64,000 nt of DNA, taken from positions 5,642,001 to 5,706,000 of the forward strand of contig CM074520.1 in the NCBI GenBank assembly GCA_037379345.1. Reading direction: 5' to 3'. Below the pieces are notes generated by a model that worked only from the letters and a program-made list of their open reading frames with translations, did not search any database and had not been told where the DNA came from. This DNA is from Perna viridis. Lineage: Eukaryota. Positions 21,202 to 46,100 of the stretch are shown piece after piece; position 1 is the stretch's first letter, and the number at the start of each line of letters is the position of its first letter. The position numbers and the translations under genes were made by a program.

Positions 21202-22965
21202 TGACAACTACATGATTCAACAGTATTGAGTGAATGAATGAGTGAAAACCACATATGAAAGTGAAATACAGATGTAAACTCTGTGATGTTTTTATTAGTG
21301 ATGGTGTCATTTGATAATGTTGACTTGAATAAATTTGGTATAAACTAAAGCCAGTAGTTTATGTCCAACTTAAAATTCTAGTGCTTAAGTGCTTCGTAGG
21401 AAGATTTAAAAAGTTAGAAGGGTCTTACAACAGTGATTCAAAGATGCACCAAGTGGATTGGTCATATTTTAGTTTACTCATTTGTTTATTTTATATCACT
21501 ATCTCATTAAAATGTTTACATATTTCTTATCATGTGTGTGACCTGGTTCTGTTCAGTATCTTTATTGCAACAGAATGTATTTATCTTTTATATGTATTTT
21601 ATTAATTTAAACATGTATGGAAAAAGTCAAAATATGCCATTCTGCCAGGCAGATTAAAAATCTATTTCATTAAGTCTTTTATATGTGTCAGAGAAATACA
21701 GGTTTTCTGCAGCTTATTAAGAAAACAAATTCTGCATATGTGTTGAAGACTAAACCCTAGTCACCTATAACAGCCCTGGAATGAAATCTGTAACATATCC
21801 TTAATGATTGATGGCATATGATTGACAATGACATATTTAGGAAATGGATGAAATAGATCCATATCACATCCACTACACCCCCTCAACTCATACAAACCCT
21901 CAAGCAAACGTTCAGGCTGATATGGCTGTCTCTATGTCCAGAATGGATATGGTGAATATAATATACATAGATATGAAGTTTAGAAGTAAATGTTATGTAC
22001 CATTCAGTGAACTTATTATCTGTCATTATGATCTTTGTAACATTTACTGACTTTGTTTATTATGAAATATATAATAAGAATCTGTATTGTTGTTGTGTAG
22101 TGCTTTTTTTTTCAAAGTGTATTGATAATAATTTTGTGAGTACGGTAGGTAGTCTAAGATCTATTCAATTTAAGATACTGTAGATTATACAATTATTTTG
22201 AATTCTAAATACCAGTTTTTTAATAGTGTGTGGAATAATAGAAATTTCCTACAGAATCTGTACAAAATGTTTTAAACAAAGTGCCTTTATTAAAGTTCAA
22301 ATATCTCAAAATTAAGTTCTTGACCTTTGTTTTTTTATATTAGAATTTATTGGTATGTTAATTCAAGGTAAATTAGAAATATCTACATAAAAATATTATT
22401 AGGTATGATCTAACTGTTTAAAATAAATATACGTAGTTAAAACTTGGCAAAGACATTTGTGTGATAATTGCGCAGCTAGGTGGTATGTTAATCAATATTT
22501 CAGACCCCTAAATTTACGTGTAGTTAAGTAAAGAACCATGTAATAATCAGGCAGATCCTTTATAGTATTAGTTATAATGATGAAGAAAAAATGAGTTATT
22601 CTTCTTTGTGGACTGTATTCAATACATCTTAAGCCTAATATACATAGAAAGTTCTAAGTACCAAACATAAAATACAAACAATGGTTGAGGTGATACAAGC
22701 TGCAGGAAAAAACACAGAACAAATGATGCTTTCTACATTTACATATGCCATATTTTAATTTAACTACCTTTTTGGTCACAGAACTGTATTTTAGATATTT
22801 ACTAGATAAAAAATTTACTATCAAATTAATTTATAATAGTTTGATGCTCTGCACCTTGTTTAATAGAAATATCTGGAGAAGAAAAATATGCTAAACATTA
22901 TGCTTAAATGGTGAGAATTTGGTATTTCAGTAGGGGGTAAGGCTTATTTATTGTAGGTTCAAAAA

Positions 22966-24879: not shown

Positions 24880-25992
24880 TTGAATTGGAACCATCCAGAG
24901 ATGACGGTGGACAAGGCACAGAAATCACTGCATCTATCCATTAGCTCACCCGACATCACAGCGTATTCTACGGCTAATCTGAACTTTTCCATGGAAATCA
25001 ACCCAGATAGTCTAACAAACGATACCGAAATTGGTGAACTGATTCAAAATATTGTTTTAAGCAGTGACGATAACATATCCGATTTCGATGACGCTATGTC
25101 AACAGATTCGGACAATGAAAATGTTCCCGAAATTGATTATCAAGAAGAACTTCTTTCGCGGTGGTATTACTACGCAAGCTTTGTGTACCAGAAAGATTTA
25201 TCGAACAGAGAGATCGATGGTTGTGAGAACCCCGACGCATCACAACTAGTTGGCGGAATTATTAACACAACAGAAACAGACTCCCCGAGGGACAGTGATA
25301 CTACATTTGCAATTGATGACACTTGTGACAAACCGAACCGCCCAAATTCAGAAAATAGCAGCATTGAACAACAAGTTACAGACGATTTGTTATCAAAGAC
25401 ACACTATCTGACGTTGGACTTTTCTGAACTTGTCAACGAGTCTTCCGTTTCCGAAATAAAAAACTTTGTTCCTAGAATGACAGATGACAATGAACCGTGT
25501 GTTGGAAATACAGAACACTGTGATCCGACACTGAATTCTGCAGATGTCAGTGCAGATCCTATTTTTTTATCTTGTGGAGATCGTACAATGTCAGTCATTG
25601 CATCCTCTTCTATATGTATGGATGAATTTAGTCTTGCAGATTCCGAACTAGATCCAAGTGAATTGATGCCTAATAAAAAGGTACACATTCTTCGACGAAC
25701 AACGACTTTATACAATCTTAACGCTACCAATCATCAGCCTATTACTAATTCATCAAAGACTTCAAATCGTTTGTTAAAAGCAATGAAATCTGTCAAACGA
25801 AGCCTGACTCCTACACGGAGGGTGAACAGTAGATTGTGTAACGATAACGATAGCGACGGACAAGAGCTTGCATCTCCATCTCAAGATATACAGTTACACG
25901 ATAGGCGTACTGTAGTAAGAAAACTCAGGAAGTTTAGGGACAGTTTCCGGCGTAAAGACAAACACCGAATACAGACTCTGGCTATGCTTTGA
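24880..25992 (+). CDS. Cluster gene A: uncharacterised acidic, disordered protein with conserved C-terminal helix and TLAxL end (terminal exon)
   Basis: 1.1-kb ORF after the acceptor tttttgcag (24879). Ends DRRTVVRKLRKFRDSFRRKDKHRIQTLAML. AATAAA at 26064. Possible in-phase upstream exons 24183-24227 and 24657-24731 (uncertain); otherwise start at ATG 24901. Confidence 0.85.
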   Translation: MNWNHPEMTVDKAQKSLHLSISSPDITAYSTANLNFSMEINPDSLTNDTEIGELIQNIVLSSDDNISDFDDAMSTDSDNENVPEIDYQEELLSRWYYYASFVYQKDLSNREIDGCENPDASQLVGGIINTTETDSPRDSDTTFAIDDTCDKPNRPNSENSSIEQQVTDDLLSKTHYLTLDFSELVNESSVSEIKNFVPRMTDDNEPCVGNTEHCDPTLNSADVSADPIFLSCGDRTMSVIASSSICMDEFSLADSELDPSELMPNKKVHILRRTTTLYNLNATNHQPITNSSKTSNRLLKAMKSVKRSLTPTRRVNSRLCNDNDSDGQELASPSQDIQLHDRRTVVRKLRKFRDSFRRKDKHRIQTLAML

Positions 25993-26876
25993 ACATAAAA
26001 AGATTTGTAATTTATTAAGAATTTGTTAGATGTAAAATTTCTCATTGTTCACTTAATAGTGCTAATAAATCTTGAACTATCAATTAGTCTTAGCTCATGT
26101 TTTCAGTCCTTTAAAAGTCAGTTAGCAATGCGTCGTCTGACTCCATGTATACATGTACACTAAGTAAAACCGAAAAAAAGATAATACGTGAATATGAACC
26201 GTTCAGTCAGATTCTGAAAGAAACACAGTATACAGATAACGAACGAACAAAACCTTCATTAACTGACGAATTGAAAAGAAGATGGGGTATAATTTTTGGC
26301 CTACAATTGCTATATTTTGAATAACCCAATACATATTAGAAAGACATCGCATCAATGTATGTTACCATATAAAACATGTTTAAACTATGTGTTTGTTTTT
26401 ATTATTACTATTTTTTTTGTTTTTTTGTTTTTGTTTTTTTGTTGTTTTTTTTTTGTTGTTTTTTGTTTTATTTGTTTTTTTTGGGGGGTCCTGTCCGTTG
26501 CCTTGTTATGCTGTGGATACGCATTTCGCCTGGTACAATTTCATACGGTGTAACAGTGATAAAACCAAAAACAACAATCGTACACTGTGGTTTTGCCAAT
26601 AGGTCAATTAGGACTACTTTTTGATGGGACACTGGGTCACAAAAAAATTTCACTGCGATTATAATACAATAGGTGGACTTAAAATTGAAGAATAGAATTA
26701 CGAAAACAAAAGGGGGTACAAGCATAGGTATATACTGTGATACAATACGAGAATATAATTATGTTATGGTGACAAATGCAGACGTAAATAAGAGAGGTGT
26801 AAAGGTACTCAAAAATCATGTTGGAAGTATGAGTTAGGATGCATGGGGAACGAATAGAAAGTTTTAAATTAATTCG

Positions 26877-27891
26877 ACTACCGGCCGCTGAATGGAACTC
26901 GATCAATCTGTGATCAAAATCAATTTTGTGTACATAAAATCAAATTCCGTCATAACAAAATCATTTTTGTCGTACAAAATTATGTTATACAGATTTGTTT
27001 ATGATCACTTCAATTTTGTGAGACAAAATTCAATTTTGTGCGACAAAAGTCTATTTTGTGTCACAAAATTCAACTTTGTCTATTTTGTGTCACAGAATCC
27101 TTTGGATATGCAAATGAATTCTCTCTCATTGCGATTTCTGTAAGGCGGCCTCTCATTGGATGTAGTAACCGCGGGTCTCGCAGGTTTCCGATTACTTCCA
27201 GCAAGGGAATATCATATGGTTGATGCACTTTTCTGCAAGAGTTATACTTTATTAGGTATTACTTACTTTTTGCAGAATAGCTTATCACCCATATGATATG
27301 TCCTTGCCCGAAGTAATCGCAAGACCAGTGGTTACTATATCCAATGAGAAATCTTCTTACAACATCGCGATGAGAGAGTTCATTTGCATATCCAAAGGAT
27401 TCTGTCAACTAATTTGCATACAAAATTGACTTTTGTGACACATAATTGAATTTTGTCTCACAAAATTGACACAAAAGTGAATTTTGTTTTTAATTGCACG
27501 CAAAAGGGATTTTGGTATGACAGATTTCAATTTTCTGAACGCAAAGTTGAATTTTGTGACAAAATTTAATTTAGTCATAATATTTCTCTGTTTTTTTATG
27601 CACATTAGTTCATGGAATCCAAACTAAACTAATTCCATACAAAATTGACTTATGTTACCCAATATTCAAATCAGGTAACAAAAGTAAAGTTTTTGATACA
27701 AAAATAAATTTTGACATGACAAAGGTAACTTTTGTCCACTGACAGATTTCTTCGTTTACAAAATTAAATTTTGTAGTATGTTATAAATTTTGTTAATCTC
27801 AACTCATTTTTTGTTGAACAAAATTCACTTTTGTCTGTACAAAATTGAATTTTGAGTACAAAACCACAAGAGTCCCATCCGGCGCCCCGTA
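26877..27891. mobile_element. Foldback/MITE with AT-rich subterminal repeats and internal inverted arms
   Basis: Diverged TIRs taccggccgctgaatggaactc / gagtcccatccggcgccccgta. Many acaaaatt.aattttgt units. Internal inverted repeat cagaatcctttggatatgcaaatgaa (about 27092) / ttcatttgcatatccaaaggattctg (about 27380). Confidence 0.75.
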
Positions 27892-27894
27892 TCG

Positions 27895-28900
27895 ATTCAA
27901 TTCAATTATTGAAACAAGAAAATTATGTAAACAGTCAACATTTTGTGTCTTCATAGACTTTAAAAAGGCTTATAATTGGGTTAATAGAAATTTATTTTTT
28001 ACCAAGTTGGATGAACTTGGATTAAGTTCAAAGATGATGAATGCTTTATATGCTATATAATATAAAGTTCAATCTCGTGTAAAATTGAATTGTAGTATGA
28101 GACTGGGTTAATGTGTTTTCAGGACTACAACAAGGATGTATTATATCACCCTTGCTGTTTAATATTTTTATTAATGATCTTGTAGATGAGATTAAAACCT
28201 TGAATGTTGGTGTTAGATTAGACGATGCTATTGTCTCTAATCTACTATACACAGACGACATAGTGCTTTTATGTGAAAATGATTTACATAGAATATTAGA
28301 TATTTTAAACCAATGGTGTCAACGTAATTATTTAATTGTCAATATAGCAAAGTCTAAAGTTGTTCATTTCAGACGACAATCAATGTCTAAAACAGGTTTT
28401 TTTTTTTAATGGCGATAAGATGGAATTGGATAAATATACATACCTTGGATTAGTTTTAAATGAATATTTGAATTATGAATATATGGCTAAAACTGTAGCT
28501 AAGTCTGCAAGTAGAGCATTGGGTTTATTGAGTATAAAGCACATGGTGGTTCTGACTATTCTATTTTTACAATACTTTTTGATACTATGCTGATGTCTGT
28601 CATTGAATATGGTGTCTCAATATGAGGCTGTGGCGAATTTTTTAAAAGTATTAATGCAGTTAAAAATAGAGCAACGTGTTTCTGTATGGGGGTTGGTAAA
28701 TATACCTCAAATCTTGCATTATATTGTGATATGGGCTGGAAGCTTTGCATAGTGAAACAATGGTCAAGTATTTCTATAATGTGGTTACGATTTATAAAAA
28801 ATGTGTAATGACAGATTGAATCAGAAAGTTTTTTTTTTTTCTGTGAGCCTACAGACATTGTATCAATCGAATTAAAAAAAAATTAACTTTAAGAGTCCAT
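27895..28900 (+). pseudogene. Degenerate non-LTR retrotransposon (CR1/L2-like) reverse transcriptase fragment
   Basis: Frameshifted RT motifs VFIDFKKAYNWV, GLQQGCIISPLLFNIFINDL, LLYTDDIVLL (YADD variant), YTYLGLVL. Confidence 0.92.
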
Positions 28901-30259
28901 AGTAAATTTAGAGAGTTGAATGTTAACCATTTTTATACTACTGACTTTATTGACTGATATATGTTCTTTTATGCAGCTTAAAATCTGCCATGAACCTGTA
29001 TTAAGTAGGAGAAATATTTTATACAAGTAAAATGAGTATCAGTGTTTTATGTTTTGTACCCTACTGTAATTTTATTTTAATGTACAGTCTATCATAACTC
29101 TTTGAAAAGAGTGGCTCTCAATACATGTAAATGAATGCACATGTTTTTATAGGCAATGATTTATATTATTAACTATAGTCATATTGTTTGAAGTTTTCTG
29201 AATTTTATGTTGTGTATCACTATTTTATATGTATATGTATGTATATATGAGAGGCGAGACTTAAATAATGAATAGTATGTCTGTCTGCATACATATAGTA
29301 ATTTGTTCACCCGACTTACCAACATTCTTCTCCAAAGCCAGGCGAGGTATCTCAAAAGATTGGTGTAGAAATTGATATCTTAGATGTTCTAACCATTAAT
29401 GGCTTAGTAACAAAAACGACAGTTAGGATCTGGTAGTTCCTGTGTCATTGCTTTATGCAACGTCTGTAAAATGTTAATGTTTTGGTTAATTTAATGAACT
29501 CAATTGCGCAGATTGTACCCAAACTCGACAGGAATGAACTACTACAAATCATCCATATTTTTTCGTGGGCTTGGCGGATTGAGATAACTACTACCATTAC
29601 ATTTTACCATTTTTGTTTTTTTTTATATATATAAAGTCAAACTTGACTATCATGGTTGTTCATTGTTGACATTTTCCCGTTCATTTCTCGTTATGACGAT
29701 GGAATCTCACAATTTCATGAACTGCGGATTTTGATAAATCTATATAAATATGAACCTTTTTAAAATGTCGCATGCAAAAGAAATGAAAGAACCCAATTCT
29801 GACAAAAAATGGGTTACAAATACTTTTCATCCATGTAAGCAACTGATTCTATATTATCATTCATAAAATTCAAGAAATCGTTACAGTCCCTATAGATACC
29901 AGAACATATTTCCACTGATTGTTGGTTTTCGCGTACATTCGCCGCATGCACATGTATACATTTTAAGACCTCCCGTGATATTTAGTCAATTCAACACCTT
30001 ACACAGAACATAAGTGATTTAGAAGCATACTAACAAGAATATTTAACAAACGAAGAAACTTTCGAAATGGCCCGTTCGATGACCCGTAGTGCGGGTGAAA
30101 TGTTCGAGCTTGTTGTTAAAAGTTTCTCCTAGCAACACATAAAAAGTAATTTGGTTACCATATTGAATATGTTTATTAGATAACACATAATAAATTAAAA
30201 GCACTAATTTATGTCAATAACCAAAAAAAAAGTAATAAATGTAAAATTACGTTAACAGT

Positions 30260-31983
30260 TCATAATGTTGCGAGTGTGTGAAGTCGTCGTAAGTCTTTTC
30301 GTCGGAAACTTTCCCGAAACCTGTGTAGTTTTCTTGCCACGGCTTGTTTGTCGTGAACCTGGAAACCTGATATTGCGCATTTCTTTGATGTGGGTCTTAC
30401 ACAGAACTCTTTGGGATGTTGTAAAGCATCGGAGTGGGCAATATCACTTTTAGTTTTTTTCTTCAGTCCTTGTTTCACGTCTTTAATCGCTTGAACGAGC
30501 TTAGGGAGCTTTGCTGAGTACTTTTCCTTTGCATGTGCCACTTTCTCCGTACACACAGGGAATATATCGTTTTCTTTGGTTTGCGCTATAGTCTGTAGAG
30601 CATCTGTTTCTATACCGACCACGTCTTGGCGAAATGTAGATGGCGCAATCGTAGACAAAAAGTCAACAGATAAACATCGGTTGTCGTCGTTCTGGTAACG
30701 CCGGAGATAATTCCTATGAAGAACAGTATCGCGATTTTCATCGATTGACCATGTTTCGGCTTCGGTCAAATTCGTTTTCCCCCTGGTACTTATTGACCAT
30801 TTTGAAAAATCAAGTTTGTCTTGCACCATTGTCGAAGAAGCACAAGGAATAAAATCATGTATCATTGTAGATTGAGCCCGTGGAGTTTTTACGTTCGTGC
30901 TAATGTCATCTGAGAGCATAGTTTCTCCTGAATAATCGATCATTGTAGAACTTGCCATTGGAGCCAATCTTAGTTTAGCAGGCGGCAATTTTTTCGAGCC
31001 ACTGAATAGCGATCGTCTAGCGTTTTGTCGTCTGAATGTGCCCCTGCAAAATTGAGCTCCACCTTTGGCTTTACTATCAAGACAATCTTCGGCTTCAGGT
31101 CTTCGTGTTAATATTATTTCTGTCGATTTGACCAAGTTATTGTCTTGCGTGAAATCAGTCCAATCATTCAGTGACGTGTTGACAAGGGTGTCTGACTCAT
31201 CAAAAGACATGCTCAAATTAGTGACTCTTGTGAGAGACTCAATTTTAGAGACGGATGATGGTGTCACTGGACAAGGACTATTCTTTGCCATCTGTAAAAG
31301 AAATACAAAAATGTATTAAAGAGTGTAAAAGTTTAAGACAAAGACACGTTACAGTAACGAGCTTCTACAACTTAACTGTTTATAGAACCATTTGATAAGT
31401 CCTATTTATGTCAACGTATCTTTTTAAAGGCTTAGGGTTTCTTTGGGGGGGATGGGGGGAGAGGGAGGTCTTTTTTTGTCGATCAGTATCAAAAGGACTG
31501 GCGTTTTTTGTTTTTTGTTTTTTTGTTTTTTTGTTTGTTTTTTTTTTTTTTTTTTTTGTCATTGTACAAAATCTTGACTAGAATATTATCTATCATATAT
31601 TTTTACTATCGTTATTGTATACTTACCACATTATAAAATAGTTGTGATCTTGGCCTCGATTTCAATGCCTTAGTAGAATTTTTCAGCGCTGGAAAAGAAT
31701 AAATTGTTATACCTTAAAAGCATATTGCAATTTTTTTTTAAATGTCTAACGTTTGAACAAAGAGCATGAAGAATATGGCTTGTGAAGTGAAACACGACAA
31801 CTAAATCTTGTACGACTAATAAAATAATACATTATCGGTTTTCAGGATGATTGAATAAAAAAATTCAGATATACGTTTGAATAAAAACAGATGTTTGAAC
31901 AGAAATTTACATATACGCAACGTGTAGTATAAGAGTAACTAGATCTAAGAAAACTTACCTTTTGGGCTGAATGAGAGCTTCAT
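30260..31983 (-). CDS. Cluster gene B: uncharacterised disordered protein, about 372 aa
   Basis: Exons 31983-31959 (MKLSFSPK, phase 1, GTAAGT), 31688-31627 (phase 0, GTAAGT), 31291-30260. Ends DKQAVARKLHRFRESFRRKDLRRLHTLATL. Three STM[IV] motifs. TATAAAAA at 32085-32078; AATAAA at about 30177-30172. Confidence 0.88.
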
Positions 31984-32077
31984 GGTATAAGTTGAAAGTT
32001 GTATTAAATTATTATGTCTTGAAAAAGAATTAGTCAAATTTGTAAAGTGTCATAGTTTTCCAGAAATATATACCCCC

Positions 32078-32345
32078 TTTTTATAGGTTTTAACACTTAC
32101 TAAGTTCGTATTACTCTAACACCTTTCGAAAATGCTTAATTAAGTACATTATAGTCAATAATTGGAGATGCTAGTTTTTACACCTGTTATAATGTACCTA
32201 CATATTTTGTTCCTGCAATTACACCTTAATTAATCTGTTAATTGATCGAAAAGAACCTCGTTACAGGAGTTAATTAGGACCTTAGATTTTGTATTGTTGG
32301 CATGGAGGATTTTTACACCTTTAATAAGTGAAATTTACACTCTCC
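32078..32345 (-). promoter_or_regulatory. Promoter of gene B: TATA box plus four T-box-type half-sites
   Basis: TATAAAAA, then AGGTGTTA (32117-32124) and AGGTGTAA (32178-32185, 32219-32226, 32313-32320), all on the sense strand, with TAATTA cores between them. Confidence 0.6.
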
Positions 32346-32969
32346 ATAAATTGCGTACAATATGAAAAATATTCCTTGAAGTAATTTTGTCACTTTTTAA
32401 AAAGATACACTGAACTAAATAGAGATGAAAGAAAACAAAAAAACACAGTTATGTCGGTCATTATCCGTAAAATACATAACAGGAGAACCAGAAAATAAAC
32501 AAATGTAGTAATAAACAAATAATCTACGAACAAAATATGAACAATCCAATGAATAAACAAAATAAACAGTGAATCGATATTTTAAGATCAAAATATAAAT
32601 GTTAATTATTTTCGCAGCATCCATATCCAATGCAAGAACATGAATTTGTCTTAATTACAGTATATTAGCAGAAATAAATATAACGAAGCTATAGAAATGC
32701 ACCCCACAACGATTAACAAGAAACACAATTGTAATGCATGCACAATTAGTATTTTGGTCTGCATCATTTTGAAATTAATCTCTAACAATTTGAATGCCAT
32801 TTATAACAACTTAACGTTTTTTTGTCTCAGTCTGTAGACCCAGTTACCGGCTAAACGTTTGCCGAAAACATAAAGCATCGGCCTAAAAATGCAACAATTT
32901 AATAATAAAATAGCATTTTTAATCGTTCTTTGAATGCAAGAAAACAATTGAGAGGTTTTAATTTTCGAT

Positions 32970-33660
32970 TCAATTCAATATTATTTTTTTTATTGGAAAG
33001 AGCACATAACAAGCGTCTCGTATTTTTTTCAAGGAATTTCGATTTAAGAAATCTGATAGTGATTCATCGGTAGTGTTATCAGGGATTTCATATCTATTTC
33101 GTAGAGAATTGTAATGAGGACAATTTAACAAGAAATGGTATTCGTCATACGTTCGATCCAAACTGAAATTTACAAAATCTTTCATTTCTTGAGTTTTAGG
33201 TTAAAAGAGCATGAAAAGCTCAAGCAGAACAATAGATCATTTTTCATTTGCAGAGACCGAATCGATTATCATTGGATACTTTTATAAACCTTTATGCCAA
33301 AAAAAAATTCATTATTTGAAAGTTTCTTTCAATTTATTAGGACTTTTAAGATATCAAGAATGTTATTTGTTACTTTTGCCTTCAAATGCAATTACTGTAA
33401 TAAGGAGTCGTCCTACAACTTGAAATTAAATGATGATTTCCGCAAGTCTTATCATAGGAATCATTTCATTAATTGAAAGTTTCTTTCTAACTGTTATGAT
33501 GCAAAAACTTTATTCGTCTTTAATGGGTAATAACTCGCACATGGAGTCGTTCTACAATTTCGACAAAGAGAACTTTATAGGCCTTGTCCCGAAGACAATT
33601 TCTTCTATTAAACGCTCTTTTCCATCTGTTATGGTTTTCAAGATAATGCCTGAATAAAAC
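32970..33660 (-). pseudogene. Degenerate LINE ORF2 3' fragment
   Basis: DEYHFLLNCPHYNSLRNRY is the typical C-terminal motif of CR1/L2-type ORF2. The upstream extent is uncertain. Confidence 0.65.
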
Positions 33661-33714
33661 GTCATTCCTTACCTTTCAATGCCAATAAAATGTACAGAAT
33701 ACAACTATCACTAT

Positions 33715-34095
33715 ATGATGGGAACAGAGTAAGGACTAACACACCGTGATGTGAAAAGAAAAGGACTAACGCACCATGATGGGAACATACATACACACCG
33801 TGATGGGAAAAGAAAAGGACTAACACACCATGATGGGCACAGAATAGAACTAACACACCATGAAGGGAACAACACCATAATTGAAACAGAATAGGACTAA
33901 CACACCATGATGGGAACAACACCATTATAGAAACAGAATAGGACTAGCACACCATGATGGGAACAGACTAACATAACATACCATGATAGGAACAGACTAA
34001 CACACCATGATGGTAACAGAAAATGACTAACACCCTATGGTGAGAACAGAATATGACTTACACACCATGATGGGAACAGGATATAGGACTAACAT
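33715..34095. repeat. Minisatellite, about 30 bp unit
   Basis: About 12 degenerate copies of aggactaacacaccatgatgggaacagaat. Confidence 0.9.
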
Positions 34096-35171
34096 TCCAA
34101 ATTTTAACAGCTGGGAAATGGAAAGATCTTTTATAAAAAATTGTATTAGGTCTAGGTAGAAATATGCCATTACTTCATGAAGACCTTAGACTGTAAGGTT
34201 GACATTTGTATTACAACAGTTAATAGTCTGGTACTAATCCATGAACAATTTACATTAATAGAAACTTTTGTTAATTTACTCGATCAAGATATGACAACCA
34301 TTTAAGTGAAGAAAACACGAAAGAATATGAAACAGAATAATCACAATAAGATATAATTTTAACGACTCTTTTTGCCTTTATAATTCTGTCCGAGTCTCGT
34401 TTTATAATACATCCTCAAGCTCTGCTACAATAATCTGTATAAGGTAAAATATAAAAGTTGTAAAATAACAGTCACATTTGAGATGGTAAATACACCTTGA
34501 ATTTATTTAAACGTCGGTAACAGAGATATTTCGCATGATGAAAAGGATAGACCAGAGGATAATTCGCTATCAAATTCAAATTTGTTGACGGCTATGCTAA
34601 TAAGAACTTTTGAAAAATTGGACGAAAATTAGTAAATCACGTAATAAAGCTTGTTTATTGGGTCGTAGCTGACAGATGCCAGCAATAAAAATCTGGATTT
34701 TTTTTTCAGTAGAAGTCAGGGGATGGATATGTTTTTCATTTTAGAAGAAAAACACATATTTATGTTCATAAAAAATGAGACCATTTCAGGTAGTTAGTGA
34801 ATCTATCCCTTTTTGAGGGACTTATCTAATGAATTTTGTTCACTTGCTCATTCCAGGCTTTCATCGATTTCTACACCAAGAAATTTTGGGGAATGGAATT
34901 TACAATACATTGATTTTTATTTTTGTATTTGAAGATCTGTTTTAAACATGAATTTAAACACTTAGGGTTTGTTTGTTTGTTTGTTTTTGTATTTATATAC
35001 ATACTTTGGGTTTCATACCGTGACTAAACAACACTTACATCATTTTGTAATTTAGTACATATGCTATTTATATCCTTGGTATGACAGTGTAAAGTAGAGT
35101 CGTAAGCATACAAGTCATGGGAAGATTTGGGTTTTATTTTACACATGATGGGGACTTTGTAGGGTTATACT

Positions 35172-35500
35172 GGTCTGGAGCTGGCATGTCAGTTAACTAC
35201 TATTAGTCCTCAGTTTGTACACTTGTGTAATTTGTATTCAGTTTCTTTATTTTTGTTGTAACAAGAGACTCAGACCTGTTTGAACTGATTTTCAGGTGTG
35301 TTTAATTGTATAATGTTTTTAAACAGTGCCCAGATTTTAAAGGGGGATGGTTGTGATCACGCCAAAGTACTTTAACCCTTCTTGCATTCTTTTTGCGACT
35401 GTCCCAAGTCAGGAATTTCTGGCCTTTATATGTCGTGTTTCATTTTCACCTTAAGTTTATTTATATTACTTGAGTATAAATGGACAAGTCTTTCGATGTG
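35172..35500. repeat. Interspersed repeat, same family as 22966-23415
   Basis: Shared colinear blocks with the 22966-23415 copy. Confidence 0.65.
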
Positions 35501-35504
35501 TCTT

Positions 35505-36583
35505 TAGCTGTGTATAATGATGTTTTGGGGCCTGTTCTTTCGTTGTAGCTGTGTATAATGATGTTTTGCGTGTATAATGCTGGTTTTGGGCCTGCTCTTT
35601 CGCTGTAGTTGTGTATAATGTTGTTTTGGGGCCTGGTCTTTCGCTGTAGCTGTGACGTTTTTGGGCCTGCTCTTTCGCTGTAGCTGTGACGTTTTTGGGC
35701 CTGCTCTTTCGCTGTAGCTGTGACGTTTTGGGGCCTGCTCTTTCGCTGTAGCTGTGTATAATGACGTTTTGGGGCCAGCTCTTTCGCTGTAGTTGTGTAT
35801 AATGTTGTTTTGGGCCTGCTCTTTCGCTGTAGCTGTGACGTTTCGGGGCCAGGTCTTTCGCTGTAGCTGTGTATAATGCTGGTTTTGGGCCTGCTCTTTC
35901 GCTGTAGCTGTGACGTTTTTGGGCCAGCTCTTTCGCTGTAGCTGTGACGTTTTGGGGCCAGGTCTTTCGCTGTAGCTGTGACGTTTTGGGGCCAGGTCTT
36001 TCGCTGTAGCTGTGTATAATGACGTTTTGGGGCCAGGTCTTTCGCTGTAGCTGTGACGTTTTGGGGCCAGGTCTTTCGCTGTAGCTGTGTATAATGATGT
36101 TTTGGGGCCTGCTCTTTCGCTGTAGCTGTGACGTTTTGGGGCCTGCTCTTTCGCTGTAGCTGTGACGTTTTGGGGCCAGGTCTTTCGCTGTAGTTGTGTA
36201 TAATGTTGTTTTGGGCCTGCTCTTTCGCTGTAGCTGTGACGTTTTGGGGCCAGGTCTTTCGCTGTAGCTGTGACGTTTTGGGGCCAGGTCTTTCGCTGTA
36301 GCTGTGTATAATGATGTTTTGGGGCCAGCTCTTTCGCTGTAGCTGTGACGTTTTGGGGCCAGCTCTTTCGCTGTAGCTGTGACGTTTTGGGGCCAGGTCT
36401 TTCGCTGTAGCTGTGTATAATGTTGTTTTGGGGCCAGGTCTTTCGCTGTAGCTGTGACGTTTTGGGGCCAGGTCTTTCGCTGTAGCTGTGACGTTTTGGG
36501 GCCTGCTCTTTCGCTGTAGCTGTGATGTTTTGGGGCCAGGTCTTTCGCTGTAGCTGTGTATAATGATGTTTTGGGGCCAGCTG
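35505..36583. repeat. Homogeneous minisatellite of interspersed 34-bp and 41-bp variants
   Basis: gttttggggccaggtctttcgctgtagctgtgac (34 bp) and a longer variant containing tataat (41 bp), about 29 units. Confidence 0.95.
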
Positions 36584-36917
36584 TTTTGATTTGTTGTTTA
36601 GTTGGTTGGCTGCCTGTTTTTTGCTTGTCATGGACAAAATCTGAATTAAATAAACAGTAACATCAATAACATGACGAGTACTTCAGCTTCGTAGTTCACG
36701 ATTAGAAGTTTAAGAGCTTTTCATGTGAAAGCATTGTAGATCTACGAAACGAATTGTTATATTGATTTGTCGTATAAGTACATGTATTGTACAAGTAGCC
36801 TTGTTGTGAAACTCTTGTTATTCGAGGAGAGAAAACACAAATTTGTTTTATATTATTTATTTACAGTGTTGTAAACATAAAATAGCACTATATTGTGAAG
36901 AGAATTTGTTACAATGG

Positions 36918-38342
36918 TCATAGATTCGCTAAAGTACAAATGTCAGCAGACTTGTTGCTCCAGCGCTCTTGAAAATATCGAATTTTCCTAATCATTTCCA
37001 CCTTTTCTAAACCTGACAAAGCCAGAAAGGGGTTGCTATTCTTTTTCTCTACTGTCCCCCCTTGTTTATTTTTCCTAGAAAACAAGCGCCTAAGTCTGGA
37101 AATTGGTTTAGAACGAGCATGCGTGGTCGTTTCTTTTCCGGGCTTTTTGTTGTTCAAGTTCAAACTGCCTTTCAACTTCTTCGGCGTAAGACGGAGCTTA
37201 GCTCTGGTGCTTGTTCTTGGGACTCCCTTGTGTGTATTGTAAAAAGATGTTTTTGCATACGCAACTTCGTCTACGACTTCTACACTGACAATGTCTCTGG
37301 TGCTACAGTAACCAATCGATGATAACATTCCAATTTCGTTCTGTGCAATTTCTTGCTTACTAGAGAGAATGTCTTCTTCGCATGAACTCGAGTCATCGTT
37401 GCGACTAATGACGAAAGTCTGGTTGATCTTGGGTCCTTGGAGTGAAGTACATGGAATGCTGTCATTTTGAATGGATGAAAAGCTTTCACTTATACCCGAA
37501 TCTTTTCTACTAAGAGTCATCATTATTTGGTTCTTGTTTTCACCAGGAGATTTTATCATGGTAGAGCATGCTACCGGTTTCGTAATATTTGACTTTCTTC
37601 GTTTGGAGTATCTACCTTGTCTGTTGCGGTTTCGACTTTTTGGAGTATGGTTTTCTTCACATCCTACAACTATACGCTCAAGGATATCTAGATCGATGCC
37701 ATCGAAATTAGTAAATGAATCATCAATATTTGAGTCAAAACTCGCACACTTATTAATTTGCTTGATTTCCGTTGGGTATCCAATCGGTACACAATGTGTC
37801 TCATCTCCAGATGACGAAGAACCAGAAATATTGTAGGAGTCTGAACAAATACTGTCGTTGTATAGGTTGAAGAAATCGTTTTGGCAGTCCTTCGCTTGTA
37901 ATATTGATAAGGATCCGAGTCTTGGAAGTTTCATTTTCTTTGAGGGCCTTTCTACGTCCAACTGATCACTCATCTGGAATTAAAAATAAATGTGATGGTT
38001 AACCGATAATTTATTATGAAACCAGTATATAAATTTATACTAATGAATCGTATAGATGATACATGGAATCAAGAAGTGTATATTAAATGTGCTATATAAA
38101 AATTTGAATTTAGAAATTCCCATATTTTTTTTAACTATATAACAAATGTAATGTTACTGATGGTACTATTATATTAGTATCACGAAACAATCTGGTTGTT
38201 ATCGAAACATTTTACATCTTTCAGCATTTTGCATAAAGACAAAGGATGCTGTTTGCGCAAATTAGAAGTATACAGAAGGTTTAACTGTATTCCATACCTG
38301 ATAAAGTACACGAACCACCTGGTCTGCTTTCACAATCTCCAT
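36918..38342 (-). CDS. Cluster gene C: uncharacterised disordered basic protein, about 366 aa
   Basis: Coding exons 38342-38298 (MEIVKADQVVRVLYQ, phase 0) and 37973-36918. Non-coding first exon ends at 38575; TATAAAAA at 38646-38639. Ends EKVEMIRKIRYFQERWSNKSADICTLANL. Contains PVACSTMI, FYNTHKGVPRTSTR and DSGISES. Confidence 0.86.
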
Positions 38343-39929
38343 TTCTGAAAGATATATCTAAAACGATAATATGAAAAAGAACGAAATTAAGAAATATTGC
38401 AAACCTTAAGATGTAAGATCGACTGCTTACAACCAATTTTAGTGAAACAATGACGTAAATCTGAAAAGAAAAAAAAAACATCGGCTGAACATCTAAGATA
38501 TCTTTACAATCAATCTTCAAAGAGCCTGGATTAACTTTTCCCGTTTTGGAATTAATTTCGAATAAATATTTTACCTTTAACCCAAAGTGCAGATCTTTAT
38601 CACAGTAAGATCACATATTTTAGCCGTGTTACATACGGTTTTTATACCTCCAGAGATCATCTTCACACCAAATACATATTGCCTCGAGATTCAGCCCTTT
38701 GTCTTATCGAAATTTAACACGTAATTATCAAAACAATTGGATTGCTATTCAAAACATTGTAAAATAATAATTGATTCTTCCGTTTTGTTTACTTTATGAG
38801 AAGTTCATTAAAAGATTCTGATTATTTTAATTACATCAATTACTTTTATTAATTATAATAATGTTATTCTATTTCTATATCACGTTTCATTTCCCACATT
38901 TTTTTCTAATGTGTTGTTGAATGTCACACCTACGTAATGCTAACAATTTTTCAACGTGTAAAAATGATTTTGTTTGTAATTTATTTTAAGACTAATAGTA
39001 TTTTCACTATCAGAAAATAATTTTGAAAATGAGAAGTCTGTGAACAACTATATAGAGTTATCTCTCCTTTCACGACATACTTTTGTTTACATTCCAGCTT
39101 GAAACAACCAAGTTTGGTCGCCTGAACTTGTATACCTTTTATTCAAACATTATATAAGTCTTTGTCTTCAGATTAAATGCATTCTTTTTCCATTAATTTA
39201 AACATGAAGAATCGTCTAAAAAAGCGCATTAAAACAGTCACAATTCGTGTTCCTATTCTATCAACAAAATTCTGTTAAATATTATGTCATTTCTGATTAT
39301 TCCTGCTATACACCGCAGTAGTTAAACCAAATCCGTAACTAAATCTAAAGCATAAAACCGAGAGACATAAGACAGAACAAAGGAAATGGAGACCACAGCA
39401 ACCAATAACAAGTAGAGACGGAATGAAAATTACTAATATTAAACTAAATCAAGTGTGTAAATTTTTGCATGTTTGTGAGAGACCGGAGTTCGTATTTCGG
39501 TTATGATAATGCTATTCTTTACATTTTCTGAAAAAAATAGAATAATGAAATAAAAGACTCATTACCACATAGCCTTTGGAGATGGTAATCATTTTCACCA
39601 TATCTTTGATTTATTTTTTTTTAAATGATAAAATTTTGCTAAAATTGTTAGTGAAAAAATAACATTTTTTTTTATTATAATCCTTTACTTGCTCCGTTCA
39701 CGATCAAGAAGCAATACATAACATATATTAGCGATCTGTTCACGATTATTCCTATGGCTTCACAGAGTGACGTTGTTGAAGAACCTGAGTCCGAGCTCAA
39801 TTTAGTCAAGTTGAAAATTGTTAATGTGAGAAACTTCAAGGTTGCATGACAATTTGTACAAATAATGCAATATCGAGACACAAATTGTATATGTTACAGT
39901 GCACTATATTCGTATCCATTTAGTGCAAT

Positions 39930-40730
39930 TCAATTGATGTTAAACATAAGACAAACGCCATGACTTCTGATTCCGTATTGTCAACTTTCCATTCATCTGC
40001 GTCAACATCTCTTTGGCACCTGCGAATCGGGTTCTCACGCGTTATGCCAGAGCTTTCGTAAACTACACGGTCTTTTTTGTACAGCGGTAGAGTTCTTACA
40101 ATTAAACTTTTGGAACAGGGTTGGTTGCTGCGCGATTAAAGTTATCATGTCAATTTTAAAAGTTTTATGGTCGTCATCATGAACTCATGGATTGTTATGG
40201 TGTATCCATCTGCACATCGTGTTTTGTTCACCGTGTCATACACAGTTTTTCTTTACTCTTTCCAAGTCTAAATAATAATAATAGTACTCGTACATCTTTT
40301 CTTGATTAAGATTTCGCACTAGAAATATGCAGTCTTCATATTAAAATTGATGACAAAATAGATGACTTTGATTTTCGTATTGTAAATTTTCCATTTCTAG
40401 ATAGTGATATCGCTGAAGCACATCTTACGGTATTTACATTTCACAGCTGGTCGGTTTCGCTCGTATTTGCAATAAAGTGTAAGGTTTCATGAACGCAATA
40501 AATTCTCATAGAAAAGCTCATGCATCAATACCACAAACTTCTAAAAACATTTTTTTCACCGTTACAAAATATTTATGCAAAAAGTATAACAGCACTAACA
40601 GGTTCTTAATTAAAAATGATGTTGCTCACCCAGTTCTTTACGGATATGTGGTGTCTTAAGCACATTCTTCCAAACAAAATCCGATGGATTTTTAACTGCC
40701 TTTAATAGATTTATTTGTTAAGGATATTTT
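39930..40730 (+). pseudogene. Two decayed fragments of a Penelope-like retroelement RT C-terminal region
   Basis: Translates with frameshifts as DKIDDFDFRIVNFPFLDSDI...SYGIYISQLVGFARIC (about 40350-40470). A second, more decayed copy lies at about 39945-40210. Confidence 0.65.
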
Positions 40731-43120
40731 CTATCTTTTTACCTTGTTTTCACAAAAAGGGATTTTCGCCCCCTAATTGCATCCCTACGAAAAAACTAAG
40801 CCATTTTTTAATATTGCACTAAATCTTGCCTAGTTATCATTTGACGTTAACCTGTAGTGACCAATTATTTCTAATGCTAGTCGGTTTAATGGTACATTGT
40901 ATTTGCATTCATTTATACGTTCTGAGCTACTTTTCAGGATCTGCGAGCATTCTTTAAGTGGATTCCTATTTTGTCTATATGGTTTAGGTTGAAGTATTTC
41001 ATGGAGATAATGAGAGAATTTTATGGTATTTTCGTTGTTTCAGTTCATTTTTTACATTACATTAATTTAAGCGCACCACAGACATGCAGTCAAGAGATGT
41101 TGGTCACTAATGTATCTTGGTGTCGTTATTTTACTCTTTAGTAATAAAAAGATTGAACTTACATTTTTGTCAGTTTTTTTTTTGACGATTACTGAGAATT
41201 ATATACCAACTGAAGTCAGTGCAACGGCCATGCTGCTTATTTCAGTTTGATTTCATTACTCGTATCAATGCATGTACCTTTGTTTCGAGAAAGGTCAGAG
41301 TTCAAGGTGCTAGTATTTGATACATTAGTGTACCTTAAACTATCATAGGAATCTGTATACTACATATTTAACCACAGTCTTGCCTTTTTAAATATTTAGT
41401 CTTAAAATATTGAATACAATCATAATTTTGTTGTTTGTTTTTACTACCTGCAATTGTCGTTTTTAGTTTTCTTTAAAAAAGAAACAACTCAAAACTCAGT
41501 AGAGATTTACCTCCATTCCATATTTTTTTAACAAAATTCCATGTCAAGCTAGCTGATTTTTCTATCTGGCAGATAAAAATGTTGTATTTCATCAACAAAC
41601 ATTACCATTGGGGCATACTTATTTTGTTACATACTACTATGCATAAAACAGTTGTTTCTTTTAACAATACATGTTGTAGATACTATTAAATAATTGGGAA
41701 GTCCAATTGTACCGTCAATTCAGTATCCGTTTTCCAAGTTATTGAGGAGAATTCAGTTTTGTTGACATTGCAGTGTTTTTGTTTTTGGTTTTTTATGGGG
41801 GGTAGGGGGGTGGTTAATGTCATTTTCGCAGTGTGCGATTATTTTCATGAGTAATATTTTTCTTATAAGAGCTTGTTTATATCCAACGATTTTCCGAGTT
41901 TTTCTTTATCAATTTAGATCGAAGACCAGAATTGATATAGCAGTCGCAGGAGCTTCCAGATTTATAAAGCCTAATAGCATCTCCTTCTTTATCAGAATAG
42001 TGCATTAACCATTAACAACAATAAACTTGTATTTAGATACATTTTGATTCGACCCCCGTACTTTCCTTTTTTTCTTTCATGCATTTTTTACAATTTTGAT
42101 GATTATTCGAGGCATAAAAATTCAAGCGATCGATATAAATTGATTCAGTACATGATTACTTGATTTAGGGTCATTTGTGTTCATCGATTTTCGACTTTTT
42201 AAAAGTTGGTTCTGTCCACTTGTATTCGACCTTTTTTATGGGTTTATTTTTGTCTATTAGTATTCGACCCTTTAAAAGGCTTTGTTTTTTTTTGTTTTTT
42301 TTTGTCCATTGGTTTTCGATGTCTATTTTTTTACGTTTGTTCTCGTTTTTTTTTTTCATCATTATTTTAAATATTGAGTAAACTGTGTTTCCCATGATAA
42401 AACTTTTCAATGACTTGTCAAGAAAGTCGGCTGTTTGGTTTTAGGACTTTGAATTTTTAGTTTGTAATGATTGCACAACCAACGAGTAGAAATCACTCGA
42501 ATGAAGAAATTCAATTTTAAATATTTTATTTACATAGCATAGCACTGATTCATAATTTGTCAATAAATTAATTATTTTACAATAATACTATACAAAACAG
42601 TACACATTATCTGCATAACCACAACAACAAAAACAAACAGGAAAGAAAGAAAGTGTGAAGAAGTGAAAAGACAGAAATGCCATCTTAACATATTGCCATA
42701 TTGCACTTTATCATAACATGAGGTCGCTTGTGTCCTATGTACATACATAAAAGCACTAAGAATTAATGACTATCTCATTGTCCCAACTCTCTACTTCTGC
42801 TATCTTACTCAATCTCTCAAATAAAATATTACAAAGAATGAAAACAAGCGACTTACTTTTAAAAAAGTACAATTTTCAATACACGTTATGAACTAAACTG
42901 ATAAAAATATTTTTTTCAATTATTCTTATATTAGCTTTAAAATACTCCTTTCTCAACGCCAAGCTCACACACTACAAACACTTACATCAAATTTCATGCA
43001 GTTTTTAACATTCATATATCTACCCGTAAAATTGTGTAAATACAAATAATTGTCTTTGTCAAATATCACATGTAAAGTTCGTGAACACATTTGTGGATAT
43101 ATTGTCACTAATTTAATGCA

Positions 43121-46100
43121 CTACAGGTTAGCAAGGGTGTGGATCTGTGTTGTGTCTTTCTGACGGAAGCTCTCGCTAAAACGACGCAACTTCTTGGCAA
43201 CAGCACGCTTGTCCATGAGGTGGACCTCGGGTGAAGGAGTCATAAACAGCTTCTTCTTGGTAACAGGTTCACTGTGAATAGATGATGGTCTACGCTGGGG
43301 TGTAGATGCAATGTTCTCGGTGCTCTTAGGCTTGCGGCGGAAACGGAACAACTTCCAGAGTGGTATGATGCCCTTGGGTTTCTTGAAGAGTTGGTTTTCT
43401 TTTGGTGATGTTGACCGGACTGATGAAGGCGGTGCTGGTGGCATACACTGGATCTCGGTCTCACTGACTGGGCTGGCCCTGGATGAGTAAGGTGAGTTGT
43501 TAGGAGCAAAAACACCAGTACTGCTGTAGCTGTGTGGACTGTCAGTGAGGAGGGAGTCAATCATGGCTTGAGTGTTGTGTGTCTCGTTACTGTTTGGTGG
43601 ACTGGTGTGACTACCACTAGAACTAGACTTGCCTGGGATGGCTGGACGATCATCTAGGGATGATGAGTGGGTACTAGCTGAAGAATTGGGAACACTCTGG
43701 ACATTGTCATTCTCTGAAGTCAGGACGCTGACCATGTCTGGCATTGATGCTCGGCGGGCTTCCATGGAACTACCACTGGACTTGTTACCATTCAGGTCAG
43801 TACGAGTGCTGGTACGTGGCAGGGTCTTTGCCTTGTTGTAGAAAGTGACTTCTTCGTACAGGCTGTCAGTGACAAGGTCTTGCTGCTGGGTGGCAGGTAC
43901 AATCATGGATAGGGTGTCATTGCAGGTAGTCTCGACTAGACTGGTACCACAGCTGGATGGAAGGACTTTCTTAGTAGGCAGAGGTGGCTTGCTGGAGATC
44001 CTGTTGATGTTGCGGTAGTAGGATTCTTCAAGTGGCAGCTCTTCAGAACCCTCTTTGATGGACCAGCAGTACACAGAATCCATGTCATCAGTAGAGGAGT
44101 GTGGTCTACAGGATGACGAAGTGGGATCTTCAATCATGGTAGAGGAAGCCCTAGGTATGGAACTGGTACGGTGCTTACTACTGCCACTGCTCTGTGATGA
44201 TGGAGAGAAGTCTTCTATCATGGTTGATGATGCCTGAGGGATGGAGATGCTGCGACGACTACCCTGTGATGAACTAGTACGGTTACGCTGAGCACGACTG
44301 ATGCGCTTTACCCTGTGATGGCGAGGTGATGGTGATGAGCAGTTGGAACTGGTAGAGCGAGTGCTAGAACGAGGTGGTGGTGCAAAACCAGGTGGGATGT
44401 ATTCGGACTCACAACCAATGACTTCTCTAGTGAAGAGCTCCTCAGTGTCAGCTGCAGTGTTGTTGTGGTAGATTACTGGTGTGTTGGTAAGGCGGGCTGT
44501 CATGTTGTTAATCTTGGTCTGACGGTCAACAGTGAAGTCACCATAGTAGTGGAGTCTGGAAAGCAGCTCTTCTTGACGGTCGTCTATGTCTGGTACACAC
44601 TGGTTGTCGTCTGAAGACTCTGACTCAGTAGACCTAGGGTAACCGCTGGAACCATTACTAGCATTGCTGATGTCAGAGGATGATGGCTCTGGTTGGTCGA
44701 TGTTTGGTACCAGGTTGGTTGGTGAGACTGGCTTTGGTGATGGTATGTAGTTACTGTTATTGTCGATGATCAGGGTCATAGCCGAGTCTTCGTAAATGCT
44801 CTCGCTGCTGAGTGAGTTGATGGAAACCAGAGGCCCCTGAAGCATCTTCTGCAGTAGGACATCTTCGTCACAGGAAGTGGTGTCTAGGCAGGTGATGGCT
44901 GGTGTGTTACGCTGGAGGAAGGAAGGAGTTGGTGGATTGTTAAGCTGCTGGTTGGTTGGGTACTCGCTTGGTTCCAACCCAATATCTGAGATGAGGGAGT
45001 TGAACTTCTGGTTTATCTCATCTATATCTGTCTGCAAGGCAGTCTCTTGTCGTTTAATGGCTAACTGTAAAATAAGATTAATATTGGATTAGATATAAAG
45101 AAACTTTAAAAGATCACATTCTTAATTTAAGTTCTGAATTTCTTTGAAATTCAGATCAATTTTGGTATACAGACATCTTACAAGCATTCAATTTGCTACT
45201 ACAAGTAAATATTAATGTAGATGAATATTCTTCATTCAGGTCAGTTAGTTTGTATTATAAAAAAATTTAAAAAATATTATTATAAGAAATGAAATACAAA
45301 TAAAATAACTATACATAAATTTGAAATACAAATACAACATGTATTCAATTATACTAAAAAATCACCATATTTTTATGTACATGTAGTTCACAACATTTTT
45401 TTGTATTTTAAACTCAATTTGGACATAATGCCCTGATCAATAGTGTAAGATGAACCTACTAAGTCATTCCTGTACAAGTTTATAAGGATTGATATTTTGT
45501 AATAGAACATTTTTATACCTAAAGTGAAGACCATACACTACTCTTCTGATATATCAAGAAGAAACATCAAAGAAATAAACTATTGAAGTTTCTGGTTCTA
45601 ACTATGGCAGGTAAGTAGAAAATTCAATTTTTGCCTCTGCTGAATAAAAGCTTTCAATAAGACTTCTACAGGCAAGATTCATGACCATCTTTAATATTTT
45701 TAAATCTTGGCTTTTATATCGAAGTAACACTTAAAACCAAACGTGTGTAATTCAGGTAAGATATGGCCATATGACCTTTATATACTTTTAAATAAAATGT
45801 CCATCAAATCTCATCTCTATAATACAAGGGATGAAACTCTTAATATATACCCAGGTTGCTTGGCAAGATAACTCCTTAGTTGTAAAGAGATAAAGGCAGT
45901 GTCTGAACCAGAAATTTCATTTAACAAAATGAAGTTAATTGACCTACCATATCAGCTTGAAGCATGAGGTACATCTCTTCATGATCAAGATGGTCTGAAA
46001 CATCGGAGTCCATACCAGTTTCCATCCAGTCTGAAAAACATAAGGGAGCATAACATAAGTCTAGAGTCACAATCAAACAAGTTGTACTAGATGTTACAAA

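Follow-up and report, generated by a model that had tools for sequence, protein, structure and literature searches.

Four paralogous genes, here called A, B, C and D, are found in a 64,000-nucleotide (nt) stretch of the genome of the mussel Perna viridis (assembly GCA_037379345.1, contig CM074520.1, positions 5,642,001 to 5,706,000; hereafter the window, in whose numbering positions are given unless a genomic locus is named). A preliminary description of this DNA had claimed that the heptamer TAGTGCT follows all four genes, next to elements bound by RNA-binding proteins. It had proposed maternal or early-embryonic translational control, RNA localisation, or a microRNA with seed AGCACU(A). This raises the question of what reads the heptamer. 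Very probably, TAGTGCT complements exactly the seed of an embryonic microRNA family of bivalves, and the mRNAs of A to D would be silenced by pairing with it. The heptamer is read here as a microRNA site because it is the sole 7-mer common to the four regions, is conserved in orthologues and forms sites of canonical classes, and because arrays bearing the seed exist in the mussel genome, with products identical to those of oyster.

A heptamer common to four downstream regions

TAGTGCT is present on the sense strand downstream of A, B, C and D, as and where first described (Table 1). When the regions from the stop codon to just past the first AATAAA are compared (100, 109, 82 and 615 nt for A, B, C and D, respectively), no other 7-mer is present in all four, and among 6-mers nothing is shared but AATAAA and the two sub-words of the heptamer. 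Any shared 7-mer was obtained in 1.0% of 20,000 length-matched window draws, and one with at least three G/C in 0.005%; in 10,000 dinucleotide shuffles, these values were 5.0% and 0. With the second site of D, five sites are found, all canonical with respect to the seed AGCACUA: 8mers in A and C, 7mer-m8 in B and at the first D site, 7mer-A1 at the second. The first D site (42752) is covered by contigs in at least two (X1 and X3) of four sequencing runs that are probably of RNA, none of them being recorded as such; these contigs are unstranded.

The short copies A, B and C have only 80-110 nt before AATAAA. Each of these short regions nevertheless kept a site, which would point to selection for such control once the genes had duplicated. 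No common stem-loop was found by eye around the sites of A to D. A genome-wide tie of TAGTGCT to the poly(A) signal was considered and rejected: the heptamer lies within 20 nt of AATAAA 1,688 times, and its reverse complement 2,021 times.

Conservation in orthologues of gene D

A metagenome scan for relatives of D, in which 87 stretches were examined, returned two orthologues of 31-35% identity, whose C-termini resemble clam proteins. The conservation in orthologous downstream regions that the preliminary description had called for is found in both, on the sense strand only; no antisense AGCACT occurs downstream of either. As in D, each of the two has one proximal TAGTGCT, which is a 7mer-m8 site, and one distal CAGTGCT. 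Two AGTGCT in about 550 nt are expected by chance with a probability of about 0.005 per locus. GTGCAAT, which matches miR-92, also lies downstream of both orthologues, as in D. By eye, both orthologues in addition share TCTTGCC and CAGTATT, which match miR-31 and miR-8, so that the 3' region of D looks heavily microRNA-targeted.

The matching seed in oyster embryos

When mollusc microRNA catalogues were searched for the seed, as had been proposed, AGCACUA was found in a developmental set from oyster (Xu et al., 2014; PMC4138081). The statements on oyster made here refer to the accessible part of this source. In eleven oyster precursors (m0214, m0215, m0314, m0316, m0317, m0338, m0341, m0342, m0345, m0347 and m0348), AGCACUA or AGCACUU is the seed with which the 3p arm opens; the authors' criteria were passed by four of these precursors, and the other seven appear among the failed candidates. 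Their 3p reads number 0-3 in the egg, are present from blastula to D-larva, with several members remaining high in trochophore and D-larva, and are zero at later stages and in eight adult organs. The authors scored the family as oyster-specific and called clustered novel microRNAs different in origin; in the accessible part of the main text, the words 'miR-430' and 'maternal' are absent and no targets are linked to the family (PMC4138081). Among adult catalogues, the seed is lacking from a Helix list and from PMC11067994, in which 15 matches to AGCACU include none at nt 2-7. With the family sequenced from oyster embryos and also present in the mussel genome, there is strong support for the claim of an early-embryo microRNA of seed AGCACU(A).

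Large hairpin arrays in the mussel genome

Among the 29 matches to a pattern built from the oyster arms were three hairpins on C9 (7,394,048-7,396,850); with a second pattern, the matches numbered 1,268, and those of its reversed control 3. An initial pattern, too strict on the 5p side, yielded no convincing candidate among the 22 loci retrieved, all on C1. The largest array, at C7:12,524,520-12,782,116 (258 kb), holds 1,284 hairpin-like copies: in the 400 kb examined there, 1,284 of 1,317 AGCACT fold as 3p-arm hairpins, all with the seed AGCACUA. This array consists of tandem units of about 1,006 bp with five hairpins each. Its commonest 22-mer (854 copies, e.g. C7:12,525,362-12,525,383) is identical over 22/22 positions to oyster m0342-3p, and 143 copies are identical to m0345-3p. 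In the nine commonest C7 hairpins, 17-21 bases of the 22-nt arm are paired, for a threshold of about 16 or more. Likeness among the five hairpins of a unit is 96% for the 3p arm, 53% for the loops and 45% for the flanks. Units differ by 1.5% on average, and 181 of 228 are distinct; between units, the non-seed part of the 3p arm varies like the spacer (0.012 and 0.013) and the seed by 0.0014. A discoidin-domain receptor kinase gene stands immediately to the right of the array.

A second array, at C12:3,605,186-3,755,810 (150 kb), has units of about 1,450 bp with two hairpins each; 61 hairpins were found in the 70 kb sampled, and about 200 are estimated in all. The C12 unit resembles that of C7 almost only at the hairpins. 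Its long spacer is unrelated to C7 and could hold a promoter. Smaller clusters are found at C12:13,955,237-13,959,391 (13 diverse hairpins), on C7 at 11.88 and 11.93 Mb (12 hairpins) and on C6 at 5.51-5.53 Mb (45 hairpins, 35 with AGCACUU and 10 with AGCACUA). The family total is thus about 1,550 hairpins, a partly estimated figure, with array size derived from one assembly.

The three C9 hairpins carry AGCACUU and lie antisense within an SNF2-type helicase gene. Their fold z-scores are -4.8 to -6.9, a range taken from four correctly cut hairpins, a fifth, cut off-centre (z -0.66), being disregarded. Two more hairpins at C9:7,394,381-7,394,716 have a 3p arm (starting with UGCACCAA) that matches oyster m0315 and a seed near that of miR-29. 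In oyster, m0315 is the most abundant embryo member of cluster 20 (PMC4138081). The two species thus resemble each other in the seeds on the 3p arm, in the identity of the mussel 22-mers to m0342-3p and m0345-3p, and in a mixed cluster (cluster 20 in oyster) in which an m0315-type hairpin stands beside the family, antisense in a host gene. They differ in copy number, with eleven loci seen in oyster and about 1,550 in the mussel (PMC4138081). The mussel arrays have no match in Rfam 15.

AGTGCT downstream of other mussel genes

The hexamer was also counted at held-out loci: five nanos loci, five Hairy/Orange (HES) loci, the best 30 of 148 homeodomain matches and the best 30 of 150 G-protein-coupled receptor (GPCR) matches. 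Downstream regions here start beyond the first in-frame stop, and some of them are introns. For nanos and HES together, AGTGCT occurs 10 times in sense and never in antisense in 12 kb, for 2.2 expected. Within 1 kb, the sense and antisense counts are 4/0 for nanos, 4/0 for HES, 8/4 for homeobox and 4/7 for GPCR loci. Over the 40 nanos, HES and homeobox loci, AGTGCT ranks 11th of 4,096 hexamers (16 for 5.8 expected; p 0.0004, uncorrected, for a pre-specified hexamer), and the miR-92 match ranks second. Among the best 30 of 150 GPCR loci, no AGTGCT enrichment is seen (4 for 3.4 expected). Sites lie within 1 kb at two of the five nanos loci, a nanos-type gene at C5:21.78 Mb having three AGTGCT within 70 nt past the stop, and at three of the four clear HES loci. 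The two seeds, AGCACUU and AGCACUA, account for the prevalence of AAGTGCT and TAGTGCT among the held-out sites.

GTGCAA, the miR-92 match, is the top hexamer downstream of the best 30 homeodomain loci (21 for 7.1). Some 30 dispersed, near-identical cyclin-like matches were also seen, most of them with stops and probably borne by mobile elements.

Companion elements for RNA-binding proteins

The preliminary description had all four heptamers adjoin cytoplasmic polyadenylation elements (CPE) or Pumilio-like elements. This does not extend to A, in which neither precedes AATAAA. TGTAAATA does overlap AATAAA in C and D, and its presence in both is less likely by chance, a Pumilio match being found in about 2% of random segments of the short lengths and in 14.5% of those of 615 nt. 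No Pumilio element occurs downstream of either D orthologue. The corresponding frequencies are 19-23% and 79% for a CPE, and 21-27% and 83% for a Musashi match. At such frequencies, CPE and Musashi matches are to be expected by chance, and the Musashi match is in addition part of TAGT itself. As reported, TTATTGACA is common to B and D; taken alone it is at chance level, because, when four matched segments are drawn, some pair of them has a 9-mer in common in 85% of cases, and one with at least two G/C in 66%. Of the common post-transcriptional code that had been proposed, the CPE and Musashi part is not supported, its matches being at chance level or by-products of the motif, and no combination of CPE, Pumilio and Musashi elements is both above chance and conserved with the hexamer. 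The localisation reading finds no support.

Comparison with known systems

The seed of miR-430 is AAGUGCU, of which AGCACUU is the reverse complement. Since the seeds AGCACUA and AGCACUU differ from it and Rfam gives no match, membership of the miR-430/427/302 family was rejected. The likeness lies elsewhere. According to the accessible part of the study of Hadzhiev et al. (bioRxiv 10.1101/2021.08.09.455629), the zebrafish miR-430 locus spans about 577 kb, with 655 triplets and 313 promoters, and maternal clearance depends on it. Both this locus and the C7 array (1,284 copies in 258 kb) are giant tandem arrays with several hairpins per unit and one seed. Both families are expressed in the early embryo, for bivalves from the oyster data only. 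Zebrafish units each have a TATA promoter (bioRxiv 10.1101/2021.08.09.455629), whereas no TATA consensus is seen in one C7 and one C12 unit. Within lophotrochozoans, a Capitella teleta microRNA cluster on CAPTEscaffold_488 is likewise a tandem expressed in the early embryo, which its authors, in the accessible part of their article, find reminiscent of miR-430 (PMC8915122). The mussel family is like miR-430 in architecture and, judging by oyster, in timing, and is not a member of it.

With regard to the targets, the K-box, Brd-box and GY-box of the Drosophila Bearded and E(spl) genes offer a parallel: there too, clustered and diverged paralogues keep a common 7-mer microRNA site in unalignable untranslated regions (UTRs). 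The microRNAs and proteins are others, the mussel proteins having no Pfam family. With regard to the microRNA, miR-29 (RF00074) has a 3p arm that opens with UAGCAC and a seed one position apart. The rest of the 22-mer is unlike, and the arrays fail the Rfam model. Oyster miR-29, moreover, is read in adults too (accessible part of PMC4138081). Assignment of the arrays to the miR-29 family was rejected, the seed not being AGCACCA and no RF00074 match being found.

Proposed mechanism and alternatives

The arrays would be transcribed in a burst at zygotic genome activation, and Argonaute would be loaded with the 3p arm, of which nt 2-8 would pair with TAGTGCT. Deadenylation and decay, which are established for seed sites, would then befall the mRNAs bearing the site. 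Of the maternal or early-embryonic control put forward in the preliminary description, an early-embryo microRNA is retained; activation in the oocyte is not, the predicted effect being repression after fertilisation. By analogy with miR-430, we incline, if only slightly, to the view that the main job of the family is to clear maternal mRNA; the sites at two of five nanos loci and at one of three mitotic cyclins are no more than suggestive of it. A wider proposal, which we judge as likely to be wrong as right, is that of a bivalve counterpart of miR-430: an ancient family of AGCACU seed, amplified in this mussel to two mega-arrays of about 1,500 hairpins, would be expressed in a burst at genome activation and would clear maternal transcripts (those of the A-D family, nanos and cyclin A); its arrays may also nucleate a transcription body, like the zebrafish locus.

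Several observations weigh against these proposals. The distal orthologue sites are only 6mers, and a housekeeping neighbour, MRPL28, also has a site. Homeobox loci alone are borderline (8 sense and 4 antisense, in 7 of 30 genes, p 0.05), and one of three mitotic cyclins has a site, the cyclin A-like one (labels by eye). The TATA consensus is wanting in the two mussel units mentioned above. In oyster, the family is modest: its 3p reads, as summed here, reach about 2,000 reads per million (RPM) in blastula, far below the 113,650 RPM of m0250-3p in trochophore; across four stages, just 23 reads belong to the oyster copy whose sequence equals that of the main mussel product; and 5p reads exceed 3p reads for m0214 (831 vs 203) and m0342 (accessible part of PMC4138081). 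The low oyster level may reflect fewer copies, or a peak earlier than the blastula sampled.

There is a variant, not exclusive with microRNA silencing of A to D, in which pairing is real and serves to tune early zygotic patterning transcripts (HES, homeobox, A-D) from blastula to trochophore, rather than to clear maternal mRNA in bulk. We regard this variant as less likely than not. It accords with the sites at three of four clear HES and 7 of 30 homeobox loci, with the cyclin B-like gene that has none, and with oyster members that are high in trochophore and D-larva for a modest total (PMC4138081, accessible part); the nanos locus with its three sites close to the stop speaks against it, as would the copy number of about 1,500, which suggests that, as with miR-430, the early burst has to be very fast.

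Readings that dispense with the microRNA, or with this one, fare less well. AGTGCT could be an element for a protein of the CPEB, Musashi, Pumilio or MEX-3 type, acting in translation or localisation in the oocyte, with an incidental microRNA match. U-rich runs do follow most sites, TAGT-based motifs overlap the site, and TGTAAATA stands in both C and D; such motifs, however, need no GTGCT, which is invariant across the nine family sites, the CPE and Musashi matches are no more frequent than in random segments, neither orthologue has the Pumilio element, and the matching seed exists in more than 1,000 genomic copies, all of which makes this reading improbable. More doubtful still is the idea that the arrays are repeats of satellite or transposon origin, from which the mussel makes no microRNA, the sites being relics or chance. 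The homogenised units (1.5% mean difference) and the lack of an Rfam match are what one would expect of such repeats, whereas the 22-nt identity with sequenced oyster microRNAs, a conservation limited to the arms, the same 3p arm in two arrays with unrelated spacers, and sites kept in distant orthologues are not. Finally, the sites might be imperfect targets of miR-29, of which two genes with the seed AGCACCA, one letter off, are found in the mussel genome; since all nine family sites have A at the position needing G, and neither orthologue is followed by TGGTGCT, this can hardly be credited. Pairing with the AGCACU-seed family thus remains the preferred reading of TAGTGCT.

Genes A-D and their surroundings

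Table 1. Sites and coding exons in the window
Feature	Position	Strand	Remarks
A site TAGTGCTA	26057..26064	+	8mer for seed AGCACUA; abuts AATAAA 26064-26069; TAGTGCT = 26057-26063
B site TAGTGCT	30200..30206	-	7mer-m8; AATAAA 30172-30177
C site TAGTGCTA	36883..36890	-	8mer; TAGTGCT 36884-36890; TGTAAATA/AATAAA 36856-36865
D site 1 TAGTGCT	42752..42758	-	7mer-m8; proximal TAGTGCT counterpart in both orthologues
D site 2 CAGTGCTA	42540..42547	-	7mer-A1; just before TGTAAATA/AATAAA 42525-42534; distal CAGTGCT counterpart in both orthologues
D miR-92 seed match GTGCAATA	42699..42706	-	GTGCAAT also downstream of both orthologues; miR-92 seed from a miRNA list
TAGTGCT in 3' UTR of unrelated neighbour MRPL28	21379..21385	+	7mer-m8
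Gene A, last coding exon	24880..25992	+	low-complexity protein; C-terminus = family basic motif + TLAML; Mytilus relative P0151
Gene B, last coding exon	30260..31291	-	
Gene C, last coding exon	36918..37973	-	most diverged copy; family placement by short motifs only
Gene D, last coding exon	43121..45064	-	full-length member; kept across bivalves and gastropods
Gene D, upstream coding exon	45948..46031	-	joined to 45064 in contigs of 4/4 probable RNA runs

The products of A to D are of low complexity and share a C-terminal basic motif followed by TLA-x-L. The D protein shares 82% identity with one from Mytilus edulis, and its relatives are found in scallops, oysters, clams, a limpet and other gastropods; their conserved short motifs recall cyclin-docking, Polo-box and degron motifs, which would presumably suit an unstable regulator. 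Relatives of B in Mytilus are 34% identical. C aligns to the family by short motifs, yet is missed by both local profiles. Pfam has no family for A to D or for 30 relatives, Atlas look-ups gave no usable match, and no fifth paralogue was found in genome searches or with the local profiles (window and 40 kb). In the four probable RNA runs, A and B have no contig cover and C a trace only, which says nothing on expression.

A short upstream exon of B (31955-31990, minus strand) apparently encodes MKLSFSPK, like the start of the Mytilus relatives; by eye its join to the large exon is out of frame, and another exon or acceptor may exist. Directly downstream of C lies a minisatellite of about 1.1 kb (35460-36600) with minus-strand open frames. 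By eye, decayed reverse-transcriptase-like fragments lie between the genes (28000-28900 and 40050-40750), and positions 40160-40215 have a high repeat level in the sequencing runs. MRPL28 (13366-22051, first exon placed by eye) is spliced in all four runs, with a UTR extending to about 22050; there, the TAGTGCT at 21379 is directly followed by AAGTGCT.

Significance

No literature on this family, its array, its target set or genes A to D was found among mostly non-subscription papers, and MirGeneDB may already name the family; for an embryonic microRNA family, such a mega-array in a mussel is apparently undescribed. To our knowledge, the agent that clears maternal RNA in molluscan embryos has not been established, and a search of mostly non-subscription literature found no paper on such clearance. 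The family is a named candidate for which the seed, the genomic loci, a set of conserved targets and the stage can be given, which makes the question directly testable. Moreover, the novel microRNAs taken as species-specific in oyster form one family common at least to oysters and mussels, and its target sites are also present in clam-type orthologues. To find more than 1,000 copies in a microRNA array of another animal lineage would show that the architecture of miR-430 is a repeatable solution. If the proposed role is true, bivalves and vertebrates would have converged in task as well as in extreme genome architecture, their seeds being reverse complements of each other.

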